The notes under the pieces: generated by a model
What the model was told of the DNA's origin: nothing
The model's input: the letters and a program-made list of their open reading frames with translations, nothing else
Database searches by the model: none
Assembly: GCA_964291415.2 (NCBI GenBank)
Contig: OZ219918.1
Span: forward strand, 1 to 64,000
Origin: Alphaproteobacteria bacterium
GTDB lineage: Bacteria; Pseudomonadota; Alphaproteobacteria; SP197
Direction of reading: 5' to 3'
Length of the DNA: 64,000 bases
Program-made: the position numbers and the translations under genes
Shown here: positions 46,376 through 53,452 of the stretch, in pieces
How the letters are laid out: each line of letters opens with the position of its first letter
How positions within the stretch are numbered: the stretch's first letter is position 1

Positions 46376-46405
46376 TTGACAAGCGGCGGCATCTCGCCCT
46401 AGCCT
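46376..46405 (+). promoter_or_regulatory. Putative sigma70 promoter with its -35 inside the left TIR
   Basis: TTGACA (46376-46381), 18-nt spacer, TAGCCT (46400-46405); predicted start near 46412. Confidence 0.5.
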
Positions 46406-46411
46406 CCATCC

Positions 46412-46570
46412 TGCAACGTTACACGGACCCGCGAGTCGGGTCGCCCGCCGAATAGAACAGCCCTCAGACCGGCAAGGGGTAGCTCCCCATGCTTGGCGAA
46501 TAGGCGGGGCTTCACCAATCCGTGTGACGTTGCAACGGCCCGGCACCCGCTGGGCTGGCACACCGGAGGG
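46412..46570 (+). ncRNA. Candidate c4/CI-like antisense leader RNA, copy A
   Basis: Stems 46433-46443/46536-46546 and CCCGCC/GGCGGG with loop GAATAGAACA; 46519-46534 is complementary to 46412-46427; homologous to copy B. Confidence 0.6.
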
Positions 46571-46578
46571 GAGGCTCC

Positions 46579-47973
46579 ATGAATATCAGAAACACGTTAA
46601 CTTCATCGGTGATCGCCGCAGGAATGCTGTTTCTCGCCGCTTGTGGCGGCGGTGGCGGCAGTTCAAGTTCGACGGAGCAACCGACGGTCGGTTTGCCGCC
46701 CAGTGCATCGAACAACGAGTACCGGATACACCTCGGCATCCCAGCGTCTGATGCGAAGCGATCTCCCATCTATCGGACAGGCAACCTGCTTCGCGTCGGC
46801 GTAGATCAAGGGGCTGCACTGGAACGGTTGCCAAAGCTGACGATTCCCGGCTTCCCGGATGTCGAAGTGCGGTACGGCACAATCAGTGACGGCGCGGGCG
46901 GTTCGGCTCTACGCGACTATTTGTCATCGATCGAAGGATCCTATTCGGGCTTGAGCCGCCGGTTGCCAGGTTATGAAGTGCGCGTTATCGGCGCTTCAAC
47001 CGCGGCAGAACGTCGGCGCGTCCTCGCGGCCGTCCAGTTGGTGAACGCCGCCCTGCCGGAGAATGCCAAACTGAGCGTCGGAACGCCACTGCCGGGCTTC
47101 AGCCTCAAGGACACGGTGAATGCGGACGGGCGCTATTTCGGGGCCGGCAGCGAACTGCCGAACACGATTCATGTCGAGTTCACGCCGGAAAGCGAGTTCT
47201 ACGACAGCGACGCCGCTGGCACGTCGTGGGGCGAGTACATGCTTCTGTCACGCGGCGACTTCCCGGCATACACAGACGAGCGCAAGGCCGTGATCCTGAT
47301 AGCCCACGAATTCGTGCACTCGCTCGGGATCGGTGGGCATGTGCCGGAACACTTCGACACGATCATGGAGACTGGCAGCAGGGTCTATGACAATGCCCAG
47401 GGCATCCGACAGCCTGCGTCCTTGCTCTACCCGATCGACCGTGAGGCTGTGCGGGCACTCTACGGACCCTTGCGGAACAGCAACGATCCCAACGATCTCG
47501 GGCCATGGTCCAGCACATCGGAACACTTGTTCGTGGGCAATGAGCATGGCGCGTTCGGCGTCGCAAGCCGCAACGGTTATGCGGAGCCATGGGCGTATGG
47601 AACCACACCGCGAACCAATCTCGCCTCCAACCCGCAACTGTCCGGCACCGTGAACTGGTATGGCGCCCTGGTTGGCTTCACGTCGAACGCCCTACCCATG
47701 GCAGGCGACGCGGGAATCGCCGTTGATCTCACGAACATGGCGGGAACGGCGGCGTTCACGGATCTGACGATCATTTCAATAGACGGTGCGCCGGTTCCGC
47801 AGTGGGCTGACCGAGACCTCCACTACACCATCGCCGTCACCGGCAACACGTTCCGCGAAACCGGAGGCGATGACGGTAGGCTCACCGGCATCTTCGTGGG
47901 CCGTTACCATGAAGCGGCGGGCGGCACGCTGGAGCGGTCCGACTTGTCAGCGGCGTTCGGTGCGGTACGCTGA
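46579..47973 (+). CDS. Putative lipoprotein with a zincin HExxH motif and a C-terminal beta-barrel-like domain
   Basis: Lipobox LAAC plus Gly/Ser linker, AHEFVHSLG, TIM Met-turn-like segment and C-terminal GGTLERSDLSAAFGAVR; GGAGG RBS. Confidence 0.8.
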   Translation: MNIRNTLTSSVIAAGMLFLAACGGGGGSSSSTEQPTVGLPPSASNNEYRIHLGIPASDAKRSPIYRTGNLLRVGVDQGAALERLPKLTIPGFPDVEVRYGTISDGAGGSALRDYLSSIEGSYSGLSRRLPGYEVRVIGASTAAERRRVLAAVQLVNAALPENAKLSVGTPLPGFSLKDTVNADGRYFGAGSELPNTIHVEFTPESEFYDSDAAGTSWGEYMLLSRGDFPAYTDERKAVILIAHEFVHSLGIGGHVPEHFDTIMETGSRVYDNAQGIRQPASLLYPIDREAVRALYGPLRNSNDPNDLGPWSSTSEHLFVGNEHGAFGVASRNGYAEPWAYGTTPRTNLASNPQLSGTVNWYGALVGFTSNALPMAGDAGIAVDLTNMAGTAAFTDLTIISIDGAPVPQWADRDLHYTIAVTGNTFRETGGDDGRLTGIFVGRYHEAAGGTLERSDLSAAFGAVR

Positions 47974-48460: not shown

Positions 48461-49444
48461 CTAACAGGAACGCGCCCCAGAAGACAATCCGTTGTCCTCG
48501 ATCAAGGCGCGATAGGCCAGATGCTTGCCGATCATGTGTGTGAACGCGGCTTCCATCTGGTCGATGGTGTCGGCGTCGCGCACATTGTGACGACCGGAAA
48601 ACTCGCTGATGTACCGCGCAAGGTGCTTCGGGCTCATCTTGTGATAGGTGCCCTGATAGCCGCGCTTGAGCATGGACCAGAAAGACTCGATGCCGTTGGT
48701 ATGGGCCATCCCACGCACATATTCGCCGGCGGAGTGGTTCACGGCTTCACGGTCGTAGTACGGATCGAGAATGTTGTAGGCACTGGCCTCATCGGTGAAC
48801 AGCTTGGCGCCGAACTCGGCCTTGGCGACCACGACATTCGAGACCGTCAGAGAGTCGGTCTTGTTGACGCGCTGAGCGGAGACGCGATTGGTGGCCCGAT
48901 CCTTCACGCCGACGATCGTCTCTTTGCCGACCGCGCCGCGTCCGCGCAGTTCCGTGCGCTTGCTCTTGGGCATGTTCTTGCGCTTACCGCCGATGAATGT
49001 CTCGTCGGCTTCGACCGGGCCGGTGAACGCGTCGGAGTCGCCATCTTCCCAAGCATCCCGGAGCCGGTGAAGCATGAACCATGCGGTCTTCTGCGTGACT
49101 TTGAGATCGCGGTGGAGCTTCATGCTGCTCACGCCCTTGAGGTTCGTCATGTAGATGTAGACGGCGAACACCCACTTGCGGAGCGGCAAGCGGGAACCCT
49201 GCAACATCGAGCCGGTGCGGACGGAGAAGTAGGAACGGCACGACTTGCACCAGTAGGGCATCGGCTTGGCGCTCGGCACTTCCCTGGTCTCGGTCGATCC
49301 GCAGTGACCGCAATGGCGTTCACCGTTCGGCCAGCGCGTATCCTCGAACCACCTCACCGCCGATGCCTCGTCGGGGAACATATCGGTCAACTCGATGATC
49401 GAGATACCTTCGCGGTGTGACTTGCCCGGTGCTTTCTGTGCCAT
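48461..49444 (-). CDS. IS1595 family transposase
   Basis: Zn ribbon CGHC..CKSC, VEADETFIGG, FTDEASAY, VNHS.GEYV, HTNGIESFWS and YISEF..RHN. Confidence 0.95.
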   Translation of the reverse strand: MAQKAPGKSHREGISIIELTDMFPDEASAVRWFEDTRWPNGERHCGHCGSTETREVPSAKPMPYWCKSCRSYFSVRTGSMLQGSRLPLRKWVFAVYIYMTNLKGVSSMKLHRDLKVTQKTAWFMLHRLRDAWEDGDSDAFTGPVEADETFIGGKRKNMPKSKRTELRGRGAVGKETIVGVKDRATNRVSAQRVNKTDSLTVSNVVVAKAEFGAKLFTDEASAYNILDPYYDREAVNHSAGEYVRGMAHTNGIESFWSMLKRGYQGTYHKMSPKHLARYISEFSGRHNVRDADTIDQMEAAFTHMIGKHLAYRALIEDNGLSSGARSC

Positions 49445-49612: not shown

Positions 49613-50578
49613 ATGGCGCAGAAAGGTCCGGGACGGTCGCACAGAGAAGGGATGACCGTTGTCCAGTTGCTCGGGATGTTCCCCGACGACGCAAGCGCCG
49701 AGGCGTGGTTCGAGGCGCAGAGATGGCCCGAGGGCCGGTTCTGCCCGGACTGCGGTTCGACCAACACCGTGTCGGTCACCAGCCGCAAGCCCATGCCCTA
49801 CCGTTGCCGCGACTGCCGCAATCACTTCTCCGTCCGCAAGGGCACGGTCATGCAGTCAAGCAAGCTCGGATTGCAGAAGTGGGCGATCGCGCTCTACCTG
49901 GCGACGACGGGCATCAAGGGCACGGCCAGCATGAAGGTCTACCGGGATCTCGGTATGCGTCAGGCGACGGCCTGGCACCTCATGCACCGCATCCGCGAAG
50001 CCTTTGACGACGGCGTGAACCTGCCGTTCCCCGGACCCGTCGAGATGGACGAGTCGCACTTCGGCGGCCGCGAGAAGAACAAGCACGGCAACAAAAAACT
50101 GCGCGCCGGCCGTGGTGCCGTCGGCAAGACCACTGTCGCCGGCGTCAAGGATCGCGGCTCCAGGCACGTCAGCGCCGCCGTGGTTCCGGCAACCAACAGG
50201 GAGACGCTTCAGGGCTTCGTGAAGGACCGTGCCGCTGACGGCGCGATGATCTACACCGACGAGCACGGCGCCTATCGGGGCATGGAGAACCACGAGTCGG
50301 TCAGTCACAGCACTGGCGAGTTTGTCCGCGGCATGGCGCACACGAACGGCATCGAGTCGTTCTGGAGCCTGTTGAAACGCGGCTATCACGGCACGTTCCA
50401 CAAGATCAGTGCCAAGCACCTCGACCGCTACGTCCGGGAGTTCGCCGGTCGCAACAACATCCGCGATCTCGACACGCTGGCACAGATGACCGCGCTGGCC
50501 CGTGGCATGGTCGGCAAGCGGCTTCGTTACAGCGACTTGATCGCGGACAATGGATTGCCTTCGGGAGCCCGAAGGTAG
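49613..50578 (+). CDS. IS1595 family transposase
   Basis: CPDC..CRDC, VEMDESHFGG, YTDEHGAY, HTNGIESFWS and YVREFAGRNN. Confidence 0.95.
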   Translation: MAQKGPGRSHREGMTVVQLLGMFPDDASAEAWFEAQRWPEGRFCPDCGSTNTVSVTSRKPMPYRCRDCRNHFSVRKGTVMQSSKLGLQKWAIALYLATTGIKGTASMKVYRDLGMRQATAWHLMHRIREAFDDGVNLPFPGPVEMDESHFGGREKNKHGNKKLRAGRGAVGKTTVAGVKDRGSRHVSAAVVPATNRETLQGFVKDRAADGAMIYTDEHGAYRGMENHESVSHSTGEFVRGMAHTNGIESFWSLLKRGYHGTFHKISAKHLDRYVREFAGRNNIRDLDTLAQMTALARGMVGKRLRYSDLIADNGLPSGARR

Positions 50579-50696
50579 AAGTAACAGCGCTCCGACCAGC
50601 GGCAACTGGCGGAGCGCACAATCAGGCGAGAACCCTCTCGGCAACAACCGTAGCCGAGAGGGCTTTGGCATGTCTAGTTCCGAGTCAACCCACGAA

Positions 50697-50960
50697 TCAT
50701 GTCTCGCCGCTATCAGGGCCGAGATCCCCGACAGTCCCAGCGCGGATATGATCGCGAATATCATCGCACGCGATTGCAATCGCCTCCATCTCAGGGCTCG
50801 TGAAAGCAACGCCCGTCGGGTGCGTAGGGAGGCAATCGAGAATCTCGCACGCCACTTCCGGGTTTCGTTGCATGAGCTCTCCGAACATGAGAAGGACGAG
50901 AGCCTTCAACGCAGTGAGATCGGCTTGAAGCCCGGCGATTCCATCATCGTCTTGCGTCAT
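50697..50960 (-). CDS. Hypothetical protein (passenger)
   Basis: 87-aa ORF after the upstream passenger gene, with a GGAG RBS; an antisense ORF competes for the same region. Confidence 0.45.
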   Translation of the reverse strand: MTQDDDGIAGLQADLTALKALVLLMFGELMQRNPEVACEILDCLPTHPTGVAFTSPEMEAIAIACDDIRDHIRAGTVGDLGPDSGET

Positions 50961-50981
50961 CTCTAGCGATCACTCCAACAG

Positions 50982-51362
50982 CTAGTAGAACGAGAACTCC
51001 GTGATCCTCCAGCGACGTTCTTCTCCGCCCTCCACGCATTGGGCGATGCCGTAGAAGTAGAGTCGGAGCGGGCCACCATACATGTTGAGGGTGTCAAGGT
51101 GCGATACGAGTTCGTATCTGTCGCCACTCTTGCGAACTGGTTTCTCGAAGGCGAAATCCGCCTCATCAGGAGCGTATAACTGGCCTTTGGCATGGCGCTC
51201 TATGATGACCTTGGCGGCCCATTTGGCGTCGTCCGCATCGCAACTTGCCCGGCTCTCGGCGGTCTTGGCACACATGGCAATGACACCGCCGATCGCGACA
51301 AAGATCGCCACCAAAACGATCACAATGACGGTTTGCTCGTTGGGACCTCTACCATTGGACAT
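50982..51362 (-). CDS. Hypothetical membrane-anchored protein (passenger)
   Basis: N-terminal TM segment VIVIVLVAIFVAIGGVIAM, then LYAPDEADF..SHLDTLNMYGG.LR; GGAG RBS. Confidence 0.7.
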   Translation of the reverse strand: MSNGRGPNEQTVIVIVLVAIFVAIGGVIAMCAKTAESRASCDADDAKWAAKVIIERHAKGQLYAPDEADFAFEKPVRKSGDRYELVSHLDTLNMYGGPLRLYFYGIAQCVEGGEERRWRITEFSFY

Positions 51363-51435
51363 CTTGCACTCCACTCGCTGGCGAGCGGCGGGCTGGGCAA
51401 GACACCCTTGTCGTCAATCTCCTGTCGTGTGTTAC

Positions 51436-51587
51436 CCCATGGTCATTGCCGCTCGGTTTGCGACCCGGCGGGATGCCGGGCCGGTCGCCAAACAACCATG
51501 GGTTCAAGGTTCCCGCTGATTTCCGCACGAGGCGGTGTTGTATTCACGGGCAGCCCGACACAGGGCGTCCCATGGTTGGTTTGGCGA
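51436..51587 (-). ncRNA. Candidate c4/CI-like antisense leader RNA, copy B
   Basis: Stem 51551-51561/51473-51483 and loop GAATACAACA (51545-51536); segment 51483-51502 is complementary to 51569-51587 and partly to 51436-51465; homologous to copy A. Confidence 0.6.
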
Positions 51588-51594
51588 TGGTGAA

Positions 51595-51667
51595 AGCGTG
51601 GGTGTGCGGTTGGTGGGAGTCAACCACTATTAGATCAGTTGCCTAGCCGTAGGTCGTGCCATAGGAT
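51595..51667. promoter_or_regulatory. Divergent sigma70-like promoter pair
   Basis: Minus strand: TTGACT(51623-51618)-17 nt-CACGCT, driving the RNA leader. Plus strand: TTGCCT(51639-51644)-17 nt-TAGGAT, ending 6 nt before ATG 51674. Confidence 0.45.
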
Positions 51668-51673
51668 GGCGGC

Positions 51674-51841
51674 ATGACGGACAAGCCAGAACCTCGGCCG
51701 CGCGGTCGGCCACCGAAGCCCATGCCGAAGATCGACGCCACTCCGGAGCGAGCGGCCCAGGCGATCTTCTCGGCCGTCAAGAAGCCGGACCCGTCTGTCC
51801 GGATCCAGAAAGCCTACGAGCGGAAGAAGCCTAGTCAGTGA
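51674..51841 (+). CDS. 55-aa AT-hook-like microprotein (absent from the ORF track)
   Basis: MTDKPEPRPRGRPPKPMPKIDATPERAAQAIFSAVKKPDPSVRIQKAYERKKPSQ*; PRGRP motif; probably leaderless. Confidence 0.65.
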   Translation: MTDKPEPRPRGRPPKPMPKIDATPERAAQAIFSAVKKPDPSVRIQKAYERKKPSQ

Positions 51842-52015
51842 GCAACACGCCCAAAGCACCCACACCTAGCCCATCCTCGGCAAACGCCAAGCAGTCACCG
51901 CCTGCGGCAGTCAATCCGCCGAAGCCTCCGCTGGTTATCGGCGGGCGAGTGGAGAAGCACGAAGCGCCATCTGGCTAGTTAGGCGTATAATTCCCAAAAA
52001 AAACGTCCGTTTGTG

Positions 52016-53452
52016 TCAGGCGTTCGGGCGCGTCTCGCCGTTCCCCTTGTGCCGGGGCGCCAGCCGCACGCGAAGATTGGCCGGGAACATCGTGAAGGCG
52101 AGGCGCTCCTCGACGCCGTCACTGGCCGGGTGGATGTCGAAGTTCCGCACCAGCATGGCGAGCACCGTGCGGATCTGGGTGAGAGCGATGTTGCGGCCCG
52201 GACAGAGCCGCGGGCCGGCGCCGAACGGCAGGAAGGCGCGCGGATCATGGGGTGAAGGCTTGTCCCTTGAGAGCCAGCGTTCGGGGTCGAAACGGCGGGC
52301 ATCCGCGAAATGCTCCTCGCGCGTGGCTTCGCGGCGGACCAGCATCATGATCGGCGTGCCTCGAGGAACGTGGCAGCCCATGAGTTCGACGTCGCTGACC
52401 GGTTCCAGGACGTGAAGCGGCGCCACCGGCTTGAGGCGCATGGCCTCGTTGTTGAAGGCATCGATGAATGGAAGCTGCTTCGTCTGTTCCAGGGTTTCGA
52501 TGGCTTCAGCCGGTGCGATGAGTCTGTCGACCTCCTGGCGTGCCCGGTCGAAGTGTTCCGGATACTGCATGAAGTAGTGAACGGCCCAGCCGGTGGAGTT
52601 GGCCGTCGTGTCCTCCCCGGCCAGCAGCAGTGTCCCGGCGTTGGCAAAGATGTCTGCATCGGTGAACCCCGACCCCTCATCCTCCAGGGCAGCAAGAATG
52701 GCTTCGATGAAATTGGTCGGCTCGGGCTTCTCCGCCATGCGCTCCCTGGCGGTGCGGACCATGGCGTTGACCTCCTCCTCGAGACGGTCGAGCGCCCGGG
52801 CGAGCGTCCGGTCCGAAGGCATCGGCACATAGCGCCAATAGGGAAAGGGCGCATTGACCCGGCGATGCAGCACGGGGAACACCTTGTCGAGATGACGCTG
52901 GATCACAGGCCCCGGGGTCTCCAGCGTGTTGGCATCGATACCGAAGGCAAGGCCGATGGTGACGTCGACGGTGAAACGCATGAGATCGCTGCAGAGATCG
53001 ATTGTGTCCCCTCGAACGGCTGCCTGTTGCCAGTGCCGCCGCAAGCGTTCGGCCGTCATGACCAGGCGTGGGAAGAAATCCTCGAGATGCGCACGATTGA
53101 GCGCGGCGGCAACGATCCGGCGCTGACGCCGCCAGTCGTCGCCTTCAGCGGCAAAGACGCCCTTCAGCCTCATTTCCGTGGCGACCGCTTCCAGCGCCCT
53201 CGTGCGCCGGAACGCCTGCGGGCGCTGGACGAGGAGTCGCTGAATCGTCGCCCGGTCCGACACCACGACGACATCGGAGGGTCCGATACGGACCCGGTAG
53301 ATCGGACCGTAACGGTCCGCCCATTTCTCGAGATGCAGATGCAGTCTCGAGAACCGGATCTGGTGGAGGTTGCCGATCAGCGGGAGGCCACCCGGTCCGG
53401 GAAGATTTCGGACCCTGGCCGGTGTCGAGGCGGTTTCCTGGTACAGTGTCAT
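52016..53452 (-). CDS. Cytochrome P450
   Basis: LPGPGGLPLIGNL, I-helix AGEDTT, ExxR (EAMR), FDPERW and heme motif FGAGPRLCPG. Confidence 0.95.
   Translation of the reverse strand: MTLYQETASTPARVRNLPGPGGLPLIGNLHQIRFSRLHLHLEKWADRYGPIYRVRIGPSDVVVVSDRATIQRLLVQRPQAFRRTRALEAVATEMRLKGVFAAEGDDWRRQRRIVAAALNRAHLEDFFPRLVMTAERLRRHWQQAAVRGDTIDLCSDLMRFTVDVTIGLAFGIDANTLETPGPVIQRHLDKVFPVLHRRVNAPFPYWRYVPMPSDRTLARALDRLEEEVNAMVRTARERMAEKPEPTNFIEAILAALEDEGSGFTDADIFANAGTLLLAGEDTTANSTGWAVHYFMQYPEHFDRARQEVDRLIAPAEAIETLEQTKQLPFIDAFNNEAMRLKPVAPLHVLEPVSDVELMGCHVPRGTPIMMLVRREATREEHFADARRFDPERWLSRDKPSPHDPRAFLPFGAGPRLCPGRNIALTQIRTVLAMLVRNFDIHPASDGVEERLAFTMFPANLRVRLAPRHKGNGETRPNA

Follow-up and report, generated by a model that had tools for sequence, protein, structure and literature searches.

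On the minus strand of the DNA analysed here (the window, i.e. the first 64,000 nucleotides of contig OZ219918.1 from an alphaproteobacterium), copy B is, to judge from comparative sequence evidence, a real folded RNA that is conserved and heads a gene. In the reading that we favour, and hold to be rather probable, it is the promoter-proximal, self-masked c4-like leader RNA of a small membrane-protein gene and switches between two folds. The predicted RNA spans about 51591 to 51455 and seems to fall into an unnamed alphaproteobacterial subfamily that is distantly related to sRNA-Xcc1 and to the phage c4 leader-embedded antisense RNAs.

Results

An earlier note on this DNA had proposed that a single segment is complementary to two alternative sites, one upstream of an RNA core and one, split, downstream of it, and direct reading together with location by script finds both complementarities in place on the minus strand. 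The top-strand stretch 51483-51502, GGTCGCCAAACAACCATGGG, has its complement, with one extra base, at 51569-51587, and its split complement at 51436-51443 and 51456-51465, the second piece without one G. Read along the minus strand, a -35-like box TTGACT (51618..51623) is followed 17 nt on by a -10-like hexamer, CACGCT (51595..51600; a weak match), and then by the 5' arm (51569..51587), the a1b1-like upstream target, of which one half, UCGCCAAAC, is constant and the other, CAACCAUGGG, variable, and which MFE folding, covariation and shuffles identify as the 5' strand of helix A. Rfam alignment places the 5' strand of helix B, GUCGGGCUG, the closing stem of the sRNA-Xcc1 model, at 51551..51559; it is followed by a CCCG/CGGG stem with the GAAUACAA...GGAAAU hairpin common to sRNA-Xcc1 (51512..51550, from the alignment and homologues) and by hairpin D (AACC...GGUU, 51494..51511), which is recognised from paired changes in homologues and is incompatible with helix A. 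The 20-nt antisense segment itself, CCCAUGGUUGUUUGGCGACC (51483..51502), is the 3' strand of helix A and would supply loop and linker (a'b') in the Xcc1-like fold. The strand CGGCCCGGC (51475..51483) is common to helix B and hairpin C, with partners at 51551-51559 and 51461-51469; the latter, GCCGGGUCG, is the hairpin C 3' strand in the MFE fold and has no U-tract after it.

Further downstream, a b2-like box GGUCGCAAAC (51456..51465) complements the linker part of the segment and overlaps hairpin C, and an a2-like box ACCAUGGG (51436..51443), an 8-mer also found in the 5' arm, complements its variable part. The a2-like box is contained in a 4-codon mini-ORF, AUG ACC AUG GGG UAA (51432..51446), whose equivalent in the nearest homologue, L004, reads AUG AUC AUG GGG UAG; the mini-ORF could be what is left of an earlier gene start. 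The downstream ORF proper (50982..51362, minus strand) encodes 126 aa with an N-terminal hydrophobic segment, and its codon-position GC contents of 0.57/0.43/0.69 fit a coding frame. The product has no known family, and a protein search limited to near lengths found nothing but the product itself. The neighbours of copy B are IS1595 transposases, a P450, and an MMPL transporter.

Homologues were found in relatives and in 32 of the 36 stretches from a pattern scan. Once 4 chance hits, 7 duplicates, and 6 identical copies had been set aside, together with 1 locus that has no 5' arm, 28 distinct RNAs remained, all from Alphaproteobacteria. The predicted promoter-plus-leader cassette is present three times in this genome and at least nine times in one other, and one genome holds 7 identical copies of a unit that starts 12-13 nt upstream of the -35 box. 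Within the window, the same family is also represented by copy A (46376..46574, plus strand), which is located upstream of a lipoprotein gene (46579-47973) and was recognised by nhmmer (E = 3.4e-5), by model R1 (39.9 bits), and by its sequence and fold. BLAST of 51380-51660 against plasmid and phage collections gave no match, and the family motif had 0 matches in viral contigs. A metagenome scan for the leader common to copy B and L004 (ACAGGAGATNGACGACAAGGGTG) likewise returned 0 matches, while a scan with GCAATGANCATGGGGTA matched at least 120 stretches; we regard the matches listed as chance, because none of them adjoins a member of the RNA family by nhmmer.

The promoter-like sequence proposed earlier, TTGACT-17-CACGCT, is present, and in 24 of the 28 homologues (22 by script and two, at distance 35, from the printout) TTGAC keeps a conserved position, 35-38 nt ahead of the 5' arm, but an E. 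coli-type consensus scan of the minus strand does not call a promoter there. At the -10-like position, homologues carry TAGCCT, TAGCAT or CAAGCT. The same kind of scan found no terminator-like site on the minus strand, and a classical intrinsic terminator after the copy B RNA was ruled out for want of a U-tract. As to the strand, helix A is uninformative: G-U pairs account for 37 of 545, no more than 14 of 28 members fold better on the sense strand, and the mean energies are -29.8 kcal/mol for the sense and -28.9 kcal/mol for the opposite strand. Members with 4 G-U pairs in helix A, however, fold 3-10 kcal/mol better on the sense strand. We thus assign the strand from the U-G pairs of helix B (see below), the promoter, and the gene orientation, as the orientation relative to promoter and downstream gene is identical in all loci; moreover, the RNA model matches the core on the minus strand only. 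Alignment to the model and the pairing in homologues support the earlier proposal of a minus-strand RNA that would start near the upstream site and contain a c4/sRNA-Xcc1-like core. A protein-coding cause of the conservation was rejected: the plus-strand ORFs 51082-51519 and 51192-51593 are without a coding GC pattern, and the RNA family varies by paired changes and loop indels.

The MFE fold of copy B pairs 51569-51587 with 51483-51502 in a helix of about 18-19 bp, the 5' partner being roughly the first 20 nt of the predicted transcript. For copy B alone, pairing of the segment with the upstream 93 nt reaches -31.3 kcal/mol, a value attained by none of 2000 dinucleotide shuffles. Over the 28 distinct homologues, the variable halves of cognate arms pair at -14.91 kcal/mol against -6.28 kcal/mol for non-cognate arms (0/20000 permutations), so that the upstream complementarity of the earlier note turns out to be a conserved, covarying, a1b1-like pairing. 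Nine further divergent members and copy A retain a long helix A of unrelated sequence; in copy A, the helix differs wholly (UGCAACGUUACACGGA / UCCGUGUGACGUUGCA) within the same architecture. The homologue comparison thus shows the predicted helix A to be kept by covariation across the subfamily, even where the whole sequence differs. One half of it is nonetheless nearly invariant (AUCGCCAAAC / GUUUGGCGAC) across distant genomes.

The alternative, Xcc1-like fold, composed of helix B and hairpin D, is also well preserved, with 98.1% of cells paired over the 28 homologues. Three of the four pairs of hairpin D show changes on both sides, one of them being C-G in 14 and U-A in 11 sequences, and helix B is maintained via U/C changes opposite G (26 sequences), with U-G pairs in 18 and 13 of 26-27 sequences at two positions. 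The invariance of its 3' strand CGGCCCGGC is partly forced, as the pattern by which loci were fetched required that strand. The inner GAAUACAA...GGAAAU hairpin is absent from some homologues, and in members with GAUU the 5' arm lacks the matching bases. These compatible and compensatory changes show that the second predicted fold is kept, and it is apparently under selection, because hairpin D covaries despite its competition with helix A. In copy B, the predicted energy is -67.2 kcal/mol with helix A against -52.3 kcal/mol with helix B enforced, and of the pairs expected for the segment, 16.2 fall on the upstream arm and 1.55 on the downstream boxes. Without the 5' arm, or with it blocked, however, the predicted MFE fold pairs the segment with the downstream boxes (9.5 expected pairs). 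To the extent that folding predictions can tell, the partners of the 20-nt segment are therefore mutually exclusive, as had been proposed. A pseudoknot combining helices A and B was rejected on geometric reasoning only.

The downstream site of copy B is striking when taken alone. Pairing of the segment with the downstream 100 nt (51473..51374) reaches -26.9 kcal/mol, which 7 of 2000 shuffles equal, and ranks first of 28 when compared with the downstream regions of other members; the boxes follow the Xcc1 order, i.e. the linker complement and then the loop complement. Nevertheless, the GGUCG of the b2-like match doubles as the 3' strand of the conserved hairpin C, and when the downstream stretch is begun 12 nt later, the longest exact match (8 nt) has p = 0.057 and the energy p = 0.077 (300 shuffles). 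Four tests over the family gave no signal for a conserved downstream target, among them those of the full arm against 160 nt downstream (-19.98 vs -19.75, p = 0.27), of the longest word in common (5.46 vs 5.35, 6189/20000), and of the variable arm against the start region (-8.23 vs -7.83, 3533/20000). A separate test of the 5' arm against downstream regions was negative as well (-13.30 vs -13.21, 8002/20000). In contrast, the same kind of test is clearly positive in true sRNA-Xcc1 loci, where the cognate energy is -20.46 against -16.78 kcal/mol (0/20000) and two downstream boxes, which complement the loop and the linker, flank the next gene's Shine-Dalgarno site in 12 of 20 loci. A two-box arrangement was found in 2 of 29 subfamily loci, copy B included. 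L004, with the same leader, still carries the box sequence AUCAUGGGG, yet both of its arms have changed in concert, so that the match is lost (rank 28 of 28, p = 0.98); L005 has arms identical to those of copy B and no boxes. Downstream targets do occur in this clade, in L023, L077, and L075. Hence, the a2b2-like target of the earlier note is not a family property, and we read the site of copy B as a lineage-specific feature or a relic.

In copy B, 74-103 nt separate the boxes from the AUG of ORF 50982-51362 further downstream, with no Shine-Dalgarno site between them, and cover only the 4-codon mini-ORF. The Shine-Dalgarno site and AUG of the real ORF (51360-51372) sit within a local hairpin of their own, and this start region is folded alike in both predicted states, so that no effect on the gene is predicted.

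With regards to known families, the sRNA-Xcc1 model (RF02221) scores 30.8 bits at 51467-51559 on the minus strand in an alignment that spans the whole model (positions 1-87); the gathering score is 53, and by Rfam's rule copy B thus falls outside the family. The model scores 31.2-35.6 bits in 4 of 20 other members, and none of the 20 reaches the cut-off. The predicted Xcc1-like fold of copy B contains the features that characterise sRNA-Xcc1, namely the closing stem, the AAUACAA hairpin, a second hairpin, and a U-rich linker. No Rfam family reaches its gathering score anywhere in the window, and at E up to 10 the region 50500-52500 matches only sRNA-Xcc1, RtT, and mir-81. The C4 model (RF01695) had no match at E up to 10 in 50500-52500 or the whole window, 20 homologous loci gave none at E up to 5, and no isrK (RF01394) match was found at copy B or in the 20 homologous loci.

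Discussion

We propose that the full-length copy B RNA rests in a closed state, with helix A and hairpin C formed and the 5' end buried, in which the antisense segment would be masked by a built-in copy of its own target. Helices A and B probably cannot both form fully, because the segment abuts the helix B strand and only 9 nt join the two 5' strands; from this exclusivity, which is a matter of geometric reasoning, we derive that the full-length RNA would adopt the closed fold. If processing or a second RNA molecule removed or displaced the 5' arm, the Xcc1-like fold would then be released, with the variable part of the segment exposed in a loop and its constant part left as a single-stranded linker. 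In the subfamily, the self-target would have replaced the downstream boxes, and those of copy B would be either a lineage-specific extra or the relic of an older Xcc1-type target before a lost gene start. Any effect on ORF 50982-51362 would be expected through leader stability or control of read-through rather than through direct occlusion of the ribosome site.

In P1 and P7, c4 acts in a phage immunity context with an antirepressor gene downstream, and its a2b2 site overlaps the ribosome site of the first ORF and represses translation. This antisense RNA with its a1b1 and a2b2 sites is reportedly the subject of work by Citron and Schuster in 1990, Biere et al. in 1992, and Hartmann et al. in 1995, the last of whom are said to have found that RNase P produces its 5' end. 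Copy B resembles c4 in being embedded in the leader of its own operon, in carrying a copy of the target ahead of the RNA in the same transcript (its 5' arm covaries with the segment) and a second, partial copy downstream, and in belonging to a family whose specificity segments differ between copies while the scaffold is retained. It differs from c4 in that its upstream copy is one contiguous 19-nt arm that would form a single long helix instead of two short sites, in that its downstream site does not lie over the ribosome site of the real ORF, and in that it is without a phage immunity context or antirepressor gene, the family motif being absent from the viral contigs searched. By reading of the sequences, A-CC comes after helix B in 17 of the 29 members, which may hint at RNase P processing. 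Both c4 and c4-a1b1 are listed as motifs in the available part of Weinberg et al. 2010 (PMC2864571).

The subfamily also resembles sRNA-Xcc1, which the accessible text of its description (PMC2996969) gives as an 88-nt RNA of Xanthomonas campestris, and which, in the available parts of two preprints, stands upstream of symE in Xanthomonas integron cassettes (bioRxiv 10.1101/2025.06.18.660453) and of an ORF6N-domain gene in APSE phages (bioRxiv 10.1101/2020.03.17.996009). Both RNAs share the closing helix GYCGGGYYG/CGGCCCGGC, an inner hairpin with GAAUACAA...GGAAAU, a second hairpin with a variable loop and then a U-rich linker, and the position directly upstream of a gene in the same direction. 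However, the predicted subfamily promoter is located about 30 nt further upstream and adds the 5' arm, which pairs with loop and linker: as far as the accessible part of PMC2996969 goes, sRNA-Xcc1 is a transcript of about 88 nt from the closing stem, whereas the -35 box of copy B predicts a start about 30 nt earlier. Boxes flanking the next gene's Shine-Dalgarno site, found in 12 of 20 true loci, contrast with the 2 of 29 two-box loci of the subfamily. The genes differ as well. Downstream of sRNA-Xcc1 (20 loci) they are SymE-like or antirepressor-like, judged from the first residues, whereas those of the subfamily, though diverse, are mostly for exported lipoproteins and glycosyltransferases (18 of 29 start with a signal peptide or lipobox by eye, and four encode GT25 glycosyltransferases). 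Our model is also reminiscent of IsrK of the Gifsy-1 prophage (RF01394), which the available portion of Hershko-Shalev et al. presents as a leader-embedded RNA with two mutually exclusive folds: in one, its middle part pairs in cis with another stretch of the transcript, and in the other it makes a hairpin of its own. In that account, though, pairing in cis involves a downstream partner, in orf45, and it is a short terminated isoform that drives the switch in trans, whereas the cis partner in copy B is the 5' end and the RNA is not followed by a terminator-like site.

In structured RNAs, it is normal for a closing stem to covary while its sequence is not conserved, and helix A could be such a stem in a structural leader or free-standing small RNA without antisense action. 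Its role might then lie in protection of the 5' end, protein binding, or an action on transcription; the Xcc1-like pairings would be inherited baggage and the downstream match chance. In favour of this, the closed fold has an advantage of about 15 kcal/mol over its alternative, neither arm has a conserved downstream target, and the diverse downstream genes suit a general expression module more than they do a specific repressor. Yet a plain stem needs no near-invariant half such as AUCGCCAAAC / GUUUGGCGAC, hairpin D covaries although it competes with helix A, and in the GAUU members the 5' arm has no bases to match; we consider this explanation, taken as a whole, quite unlikely. The two arms also form an inverted repeat in the DNA, of 19 bp, that could be a protein-binding or recombination site, and both the nearly equal folding of helix A on the opposite strand and the seven identical units starting just ahead of the -35 box would suit this. 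But the U-G pairs of helix B would be A-C mismatches on the other strand, the members with four G-U pairs favour the sense strand, the orientation to promoter and downstream gene never changes, and the core matches the RNA model on one strand only, which together make a DNA-level element extremely improbable.

A full c4-type switch, in which the segment would bind the upstream arm in the precursor and the downstream boxes after processing and thereby control ORF 50982-51362, for instance via the 4-codon mini-ORF and transcriptional polarity, is closest to the earlier note. It draws on the true sRNA-Xcc1 order of the boxes, the rarity of such a pair among the 29 loci, the rank and shuffle statistics of the match, the refolding onto the boxes once the 5' arm is gone, and the evidence from L023, L077, and L075 that downstream targets occur in the clade. 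Against it stand the four family tests without signal beside the positive control, the box that L004 retains though its arms no longer match, the absence of boxes in L005 despite shared arms, the second role of GGUCG as a hairpin C strand, the distance of the boxes from the real AUG with no Shine-Dalgarno site between them, and the start region that folds alike in both states. We judge this switch unlikely, and prefer the self-masked leader described above.

The known role of phage c4, IsrK, and sRNA-Xcc1 is to guard antirepressor and toxin genes on mobile elements. Our analysis suggests that in Alphaproteobacteria the Xcc1/c4 scaffold has been rewired by placing the target copy at the RNA's own 5' end, and that the rewired module heads genes for exported lipoproteins and LPS-type glycosyltransferases. 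The loci seem to form a natural series that runs from a downstream target only (sRNA-Xcc1, L023) via both targets (copy B, L077) to a self-target only (most members), and this series could help explain the purpose of the long-puzzling upstream a1b1 copy in phage P1. Furthermore, the two-box arrangement of true sRNA-Xcc1 loci, of which the available parts of the literature on this RNA hold no statement that we found, provides a likely cis target for an sRNA that has been described as trans-acting and linked to virulence. It is conceivable, albeit improbable, that the hypervariable self-complementary arms serve as address codes, by which a processed RNA would recognise only the 5' arm of its own locus and exert copy-specific feedback. 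If this were true, each surface lipoprotein or glycosyltransferase gene could be set on or off independently, and Alphaproteobacteria would possess, via a mobile cassette, an RNA-based route to variable surface composition.

The antisense segment of copy B probably pairs with the 5' end of its own RNA

Both complementarities that the earlier note had read in copy B, a probable c4-like leader RNA on the minus strand (about 51591 to 51455) ahead of ORF 50982-51362, are present. The 20-nt segment CCCAUGGUUGUUUGGCGACC (51502..51483, minus strand, as are all elements of copy B) can pair with the upstream arm CCAUCGCCAAACCAACCAUGGG (51590..51569) and with two downstream boxes, GGUCGCAAAC (51465..51456) and ACCAUGGG (51443..51436), and the proposed promoter, TTGACT (51623..51618) and CACGCT (51600..51595) with a 17-nt spacer, is likewise found. 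The claim that these are two alternative targets was half right: the upstream pairing turned out to be a covarying helix, whereas the downstream target gave null results in tests across the family. Pairing with the upstream arm (helix A) amounts to -31.3 kcal/mol, a value that none of 2000 dinucleotide-shuffled versions of the upstream 93 nt attained, and folding of 51360-51595, as had been proposed, gave -97.9 kcal/mol (z = -2.67) with this pairing in the minimum free energy (MFE) structure. Against the downstream 100 nt the segment reaches -26.9 kcal/mol (matched by 7 of 2000 shuffles), a figure inflated because GGUCG is shared with one strand (3') of a conserved hairpin; once the first 12 nt are left out, 300 shuffles put the longest exact match (8 nt) at p = 0.057 and the pairing energy at p = 0.077.

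Membership and anatomy of the family

No Rfam family reached its gathering threshold anywhere in the window. At permissive settings the sole relevant Rfam match was sRNA-Xcc1 (RF02221) at 51467-51559 (-), with a score of 30.8 bits (cut-off 53) and 87/87 model positions aligned, and neither C4 nor isrK was matched. By BLAST, 12 of 61 related genomes contain homologues of the region (8 of 22 same-genus genomes, the window's own left out) and the window's own genome one further copy; phage and plasmid collections gave no match. A scan for the conserved 3' motif, which had no match in viral contigs, yielded 36 stretches at one genome per species: four were chance occurrences in other phyla without any other family feature, seven duplicated loci from BLAST, seven were one identical unit of a single genome, and one (locus L023) lacked a 5' arm. 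The 28 distinct RNAs remaining after these removals form alignment A1. A covariance model built from it showed that 7 of 151 genomes from across the class carry the family, the window's own included, and nhmmer with A1 located three copies in that genome, namely copy B, one at C1:88435-88545, and one at 46429-46557 (+) of the window, which is evidently the copy A of the earlier note.

Read from 5' to 3', a TTGAC box stands 35-38 nt 5' of the 5' arm in 24 of the 28 members, and the arm itself joins a near-invariant half, AUCGCCAAAC, to a hypervariable one. There follow GYCGGGYYG, the 5' strand of helix B (the closing stem of the sRNA-Xcc1 model), a CCCG/CGGG stem that in most members encloses a GAAUACAA hairpin common to sRNA-Xcc1, then GGGAAYC and a variable stretch, and the 3' arm GRUUGUUUGGCGAC, to which the segment corresponds. 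Directly 3' of this arm lies the invariant CGGCCCGGC, which makes hairpin C with a second GCCGGG-like strand across a short loop; most members with an assigned start continue into the ribosome site of a same-strand gene, starting 27-65 nt further on.

A covarying terminal helix and a competing fold

When the variable arm halves alone were compared, without an alignment, pairing with the own partner averaged -14.91 kcal/mol vs -6.28 kcal/mol with the arms of other members, and 0 of 20000 permutations were as good. A helix A of 16-22 bp, with an entirely different sequence, also persists in copy A and in nine more divergent members that the covariance model picked up. Thus, the supposed upstream target is one strand of a conserved terminal helix, and, judged from the promoter position, that strand is the extreme 5' end of the transcript. 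Since only 37 of 545 helix A pairs are G-U and the sense strand pairs better in just 14 of 28 members, the transcribed strand cannot be read from helix A alone; it is assigned from the U-G pairs of helix B, the promoter, and the constant orientation towards the next gene. In one homologue, L006:1491-1632 (-), a 5' arm like that of copy B (CCAGCCAUGGG) meets a different 3' arm (AUCACACGG), so that helix A pairs poorly there (-6.6 kcal/mol, rank 17), as if arms had been swapped between copies.

RNAalifold on A1 returned the sRNA-Xcc1 fold, with helix B, the CCCG stem, and hairpin D (AAYC/GRUU), the loop of which would display the variable part of the segment; 98.1% of the cells are paired. Hairpin D has changes on both sides at three of its four pairs (one of them C-G in 14 and U-A in 11 members), which is no by-product of helix A, as the 5' arms of the GAUU members lack matching bases. 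Helix B shows U/C changes facing G, confined to its 5' side because the search pattern fixed the 3' strand. On geometric reasoning, helices A and B would not be fully compatible, since the 3' arm abuts the helix B strand without a spacer and only 9 nt separate the 5' strands. For copy B the fold with helix A (-67.2 kcal/mol) lies 15 kcal/mol below the best fold with helix B enforced (-52.3 kcal/mol), and in copy A the same preference amounts to 17 kcal/mol. Given this predicted advantage, the full-length RNA should rest in the closed form, and the Xcc1-like form would arise only if the 5' arm were removed or occupied.

Candidate downstream targets in sRNA-Xcc1 relatives and in copy B

Of 151 genomes sampled from the whole phylum, 24 contain RF02221 matches above the cut-off. 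The 20 best of these loci (L052-L071, all from other genomes) have a promoter-like region adjoining helix B and no 5' arm. Their second-hairpin loop and linker are exactly complementary to two boxes around the Shine-Dalgarno site of the next gene in 12 of 20 cases, counting two separate exact complements of at least 6 nt within 75 nt, and cognate box pairing exceeds non-cognate pairing (-20.46 vs -16.78 kcal/mol; 0 of 20000 permutations). This arrangement, which follows the logic of c4 and served as positive control for our downstream tests, suggests that an RNA described as acting in trans has a c4-like target in cis; no such statement was seen in the passages on sRNA-Xcc1 consulted. From their first residues, the next genes look like SymE-type toxins or Bro-N, ORF6N or Rha-type antirepressors, in agreement with the sRNA-Xcc1 contexts reported in two studies, symE downstream of it (10.1101/2025.06.18.660453) and an ORF6N gene in APSE phages (10.1101/2020.03.17.996009).

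The subfamily with a 5' arm gave null results in the equivalent comparisons: the full 3' arm against 160 nt downstream (cognate -19.98, non-cognate -19.75, p = 0.27), the longest shared word (5.46 and 5.35; 6189 of 20000 permutations), the variable arm against start regions (-8.23 and -7.83; 3533 of 20000), and the 5' arm against downstream sequence (-13.30 and -13.21; 8002 of 20000). Against shuffles of their own downstream sequence, 4 of 38 members by word and 5 of 38 by energy had p <= 0.05, where about 2 are expected. Two boxes as defined for RF02221 occur at 2 of 29 subfamily loci, copy B and L023, the latter in effect an Xcc1-type locus, as it has no 5' arm.

Copy B might nevertheless possess a working downstream site of its own, a reading that we regard as unlikely but not negligible. 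It ranks first of 28 in the full-3'-arm test, its boxes follow the Xcc1 order, and once the 5' arm is taken away or blocked, the MFE structure places the segment on them (9.5 expected pairs; -87.6 vs -100.7 kcal/mol for the full fold). Elsewhere, boxes surround the own ribosome site at L077, and L075 (G275:C41:5835-5968) carries an exact 16-mer complement of its 3' arm about 75 nt downstream, followed by sequence resembling the start of a second RNA, so that it is apparently an arm of a tandem copy. However, L004, the only homologue sharing the copy B leader (77% identity over 269 nt), retains the box sequence, both its arms have changed together, and the match is lost (rank 28 of 28; p = 0.98 vs shuffles), while L005 has the same arms as copy B and no boxes; two metagenome scans for further loci with this leader had none among the matches listed. 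In copy B no Shine-Dalgarno site lies between the boxes: they cover only a 4-codon mini-ORF, at least 74 nt upstream of the AUG at 51362, and the local hairpin holding this AUG and its Shine-Dalgarno site is identical in both predicted states.

Genes and genomic setting

ORF 50982-51362 (126 aa) has a hydrophobic N-terminal segment, codon-position GC of the coding-frame type with GC3 below that of core genes, and neither a Pfam family nor a homologue was found for it. Its Shine-Dalgarno site and AUG lie in a predicted stable hairpin (GGUGUCUUGC...GCAAGAUGUCC; 51345-51400, minus strand), regardless of which state the upstream RNA is in. Two diverged, divergently oriented IS1595-family (ISXO2-like) transposase genes, 48461-49444 (-) and 49613-50578 (+), separate copies A and B, and a P450 and an MMPL gene are situated on the other side; GC content dips to 0.57-0.61 around 41-52 kb.

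Copy A (46376-46574, plus strand) has TTGACA, 18 nt, and TAGCCT, followed by a helix A that differs throughout in sequence, and precedes a 464-aa lipoprotein gene (46579-47973, plus strand; signal ...LFLAACGGGGG). Its variable arm matches, with one bulge, CACACCGGA, a stretch overlapping the Shine-Dalgarno site; among 25 it comes first in the variable-arm test against start regions and is not significant vs shuffles. The third copy (G000:C1:88434-88551; L015, L079), of the short form that lacks the AAUACAA hairpin, precedes a gene for a GT25 (LPS-type) glycosyltransferase. Across the family, a signal peptide or lipobox opens the next gene at 18 of 29 loci (by eye), several with a CGGGGG lipoprotein start and two with weak TbpB-type beta-barrel matches, and in 4 loci that gene encodes a GT25 glycosyltransferase. 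One genome holds seven 100% identical units of at least 1350 nt (L016, L018, L021, L025, L038, L047, L050), which start sharply 12-13 nt upstream of the RNA's -35 box and extend into a CGGGGG lipoprotein gene, so that promoter and RNA together form the left end of a multi-copy and probably mobile unit. The RNA is preceded at a distance of 300-600 nt by tRNA genes in two homologous loci (L004:1481-1566 and L029:1748-1906), and these may be island insertion sites.

Proposed mechanism and relation to known RNAs

Judged from sequence comparison, copy B represents a conserved promoter-proximal RNA whose segment and 5' end form a covarying terminal helix, with a competing Xcc1-like fold apparently under selection; relatives direct this same segment at the ribosome site of the gene that follows. 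We propose that the full-length RNA would be closed, its segment masked by an in-built copy of the target. Opening could come about by processing, either by RNase P at helix B or by RNase III on the long helix, or alternatively by a second RNA molecule, and the output might be altered stability of the leader or altered read-through. Once opened, the segment of copy B could additionally take the downstream boxes. RNase P processing is known from c4 RNA. IsrK (PMC4825925) provides a tested example of a leader RNA in which the central portion either pairs with a partner in cis or folds into its own hairpin. While RNAs of this kind are thus already known in c4, IsrK, and sRNA-Xcc1, what is new is a subfamily whose 5' end carries a contiguous self-target, outside every Rfam family at threshold, and a series of intermediate forms.
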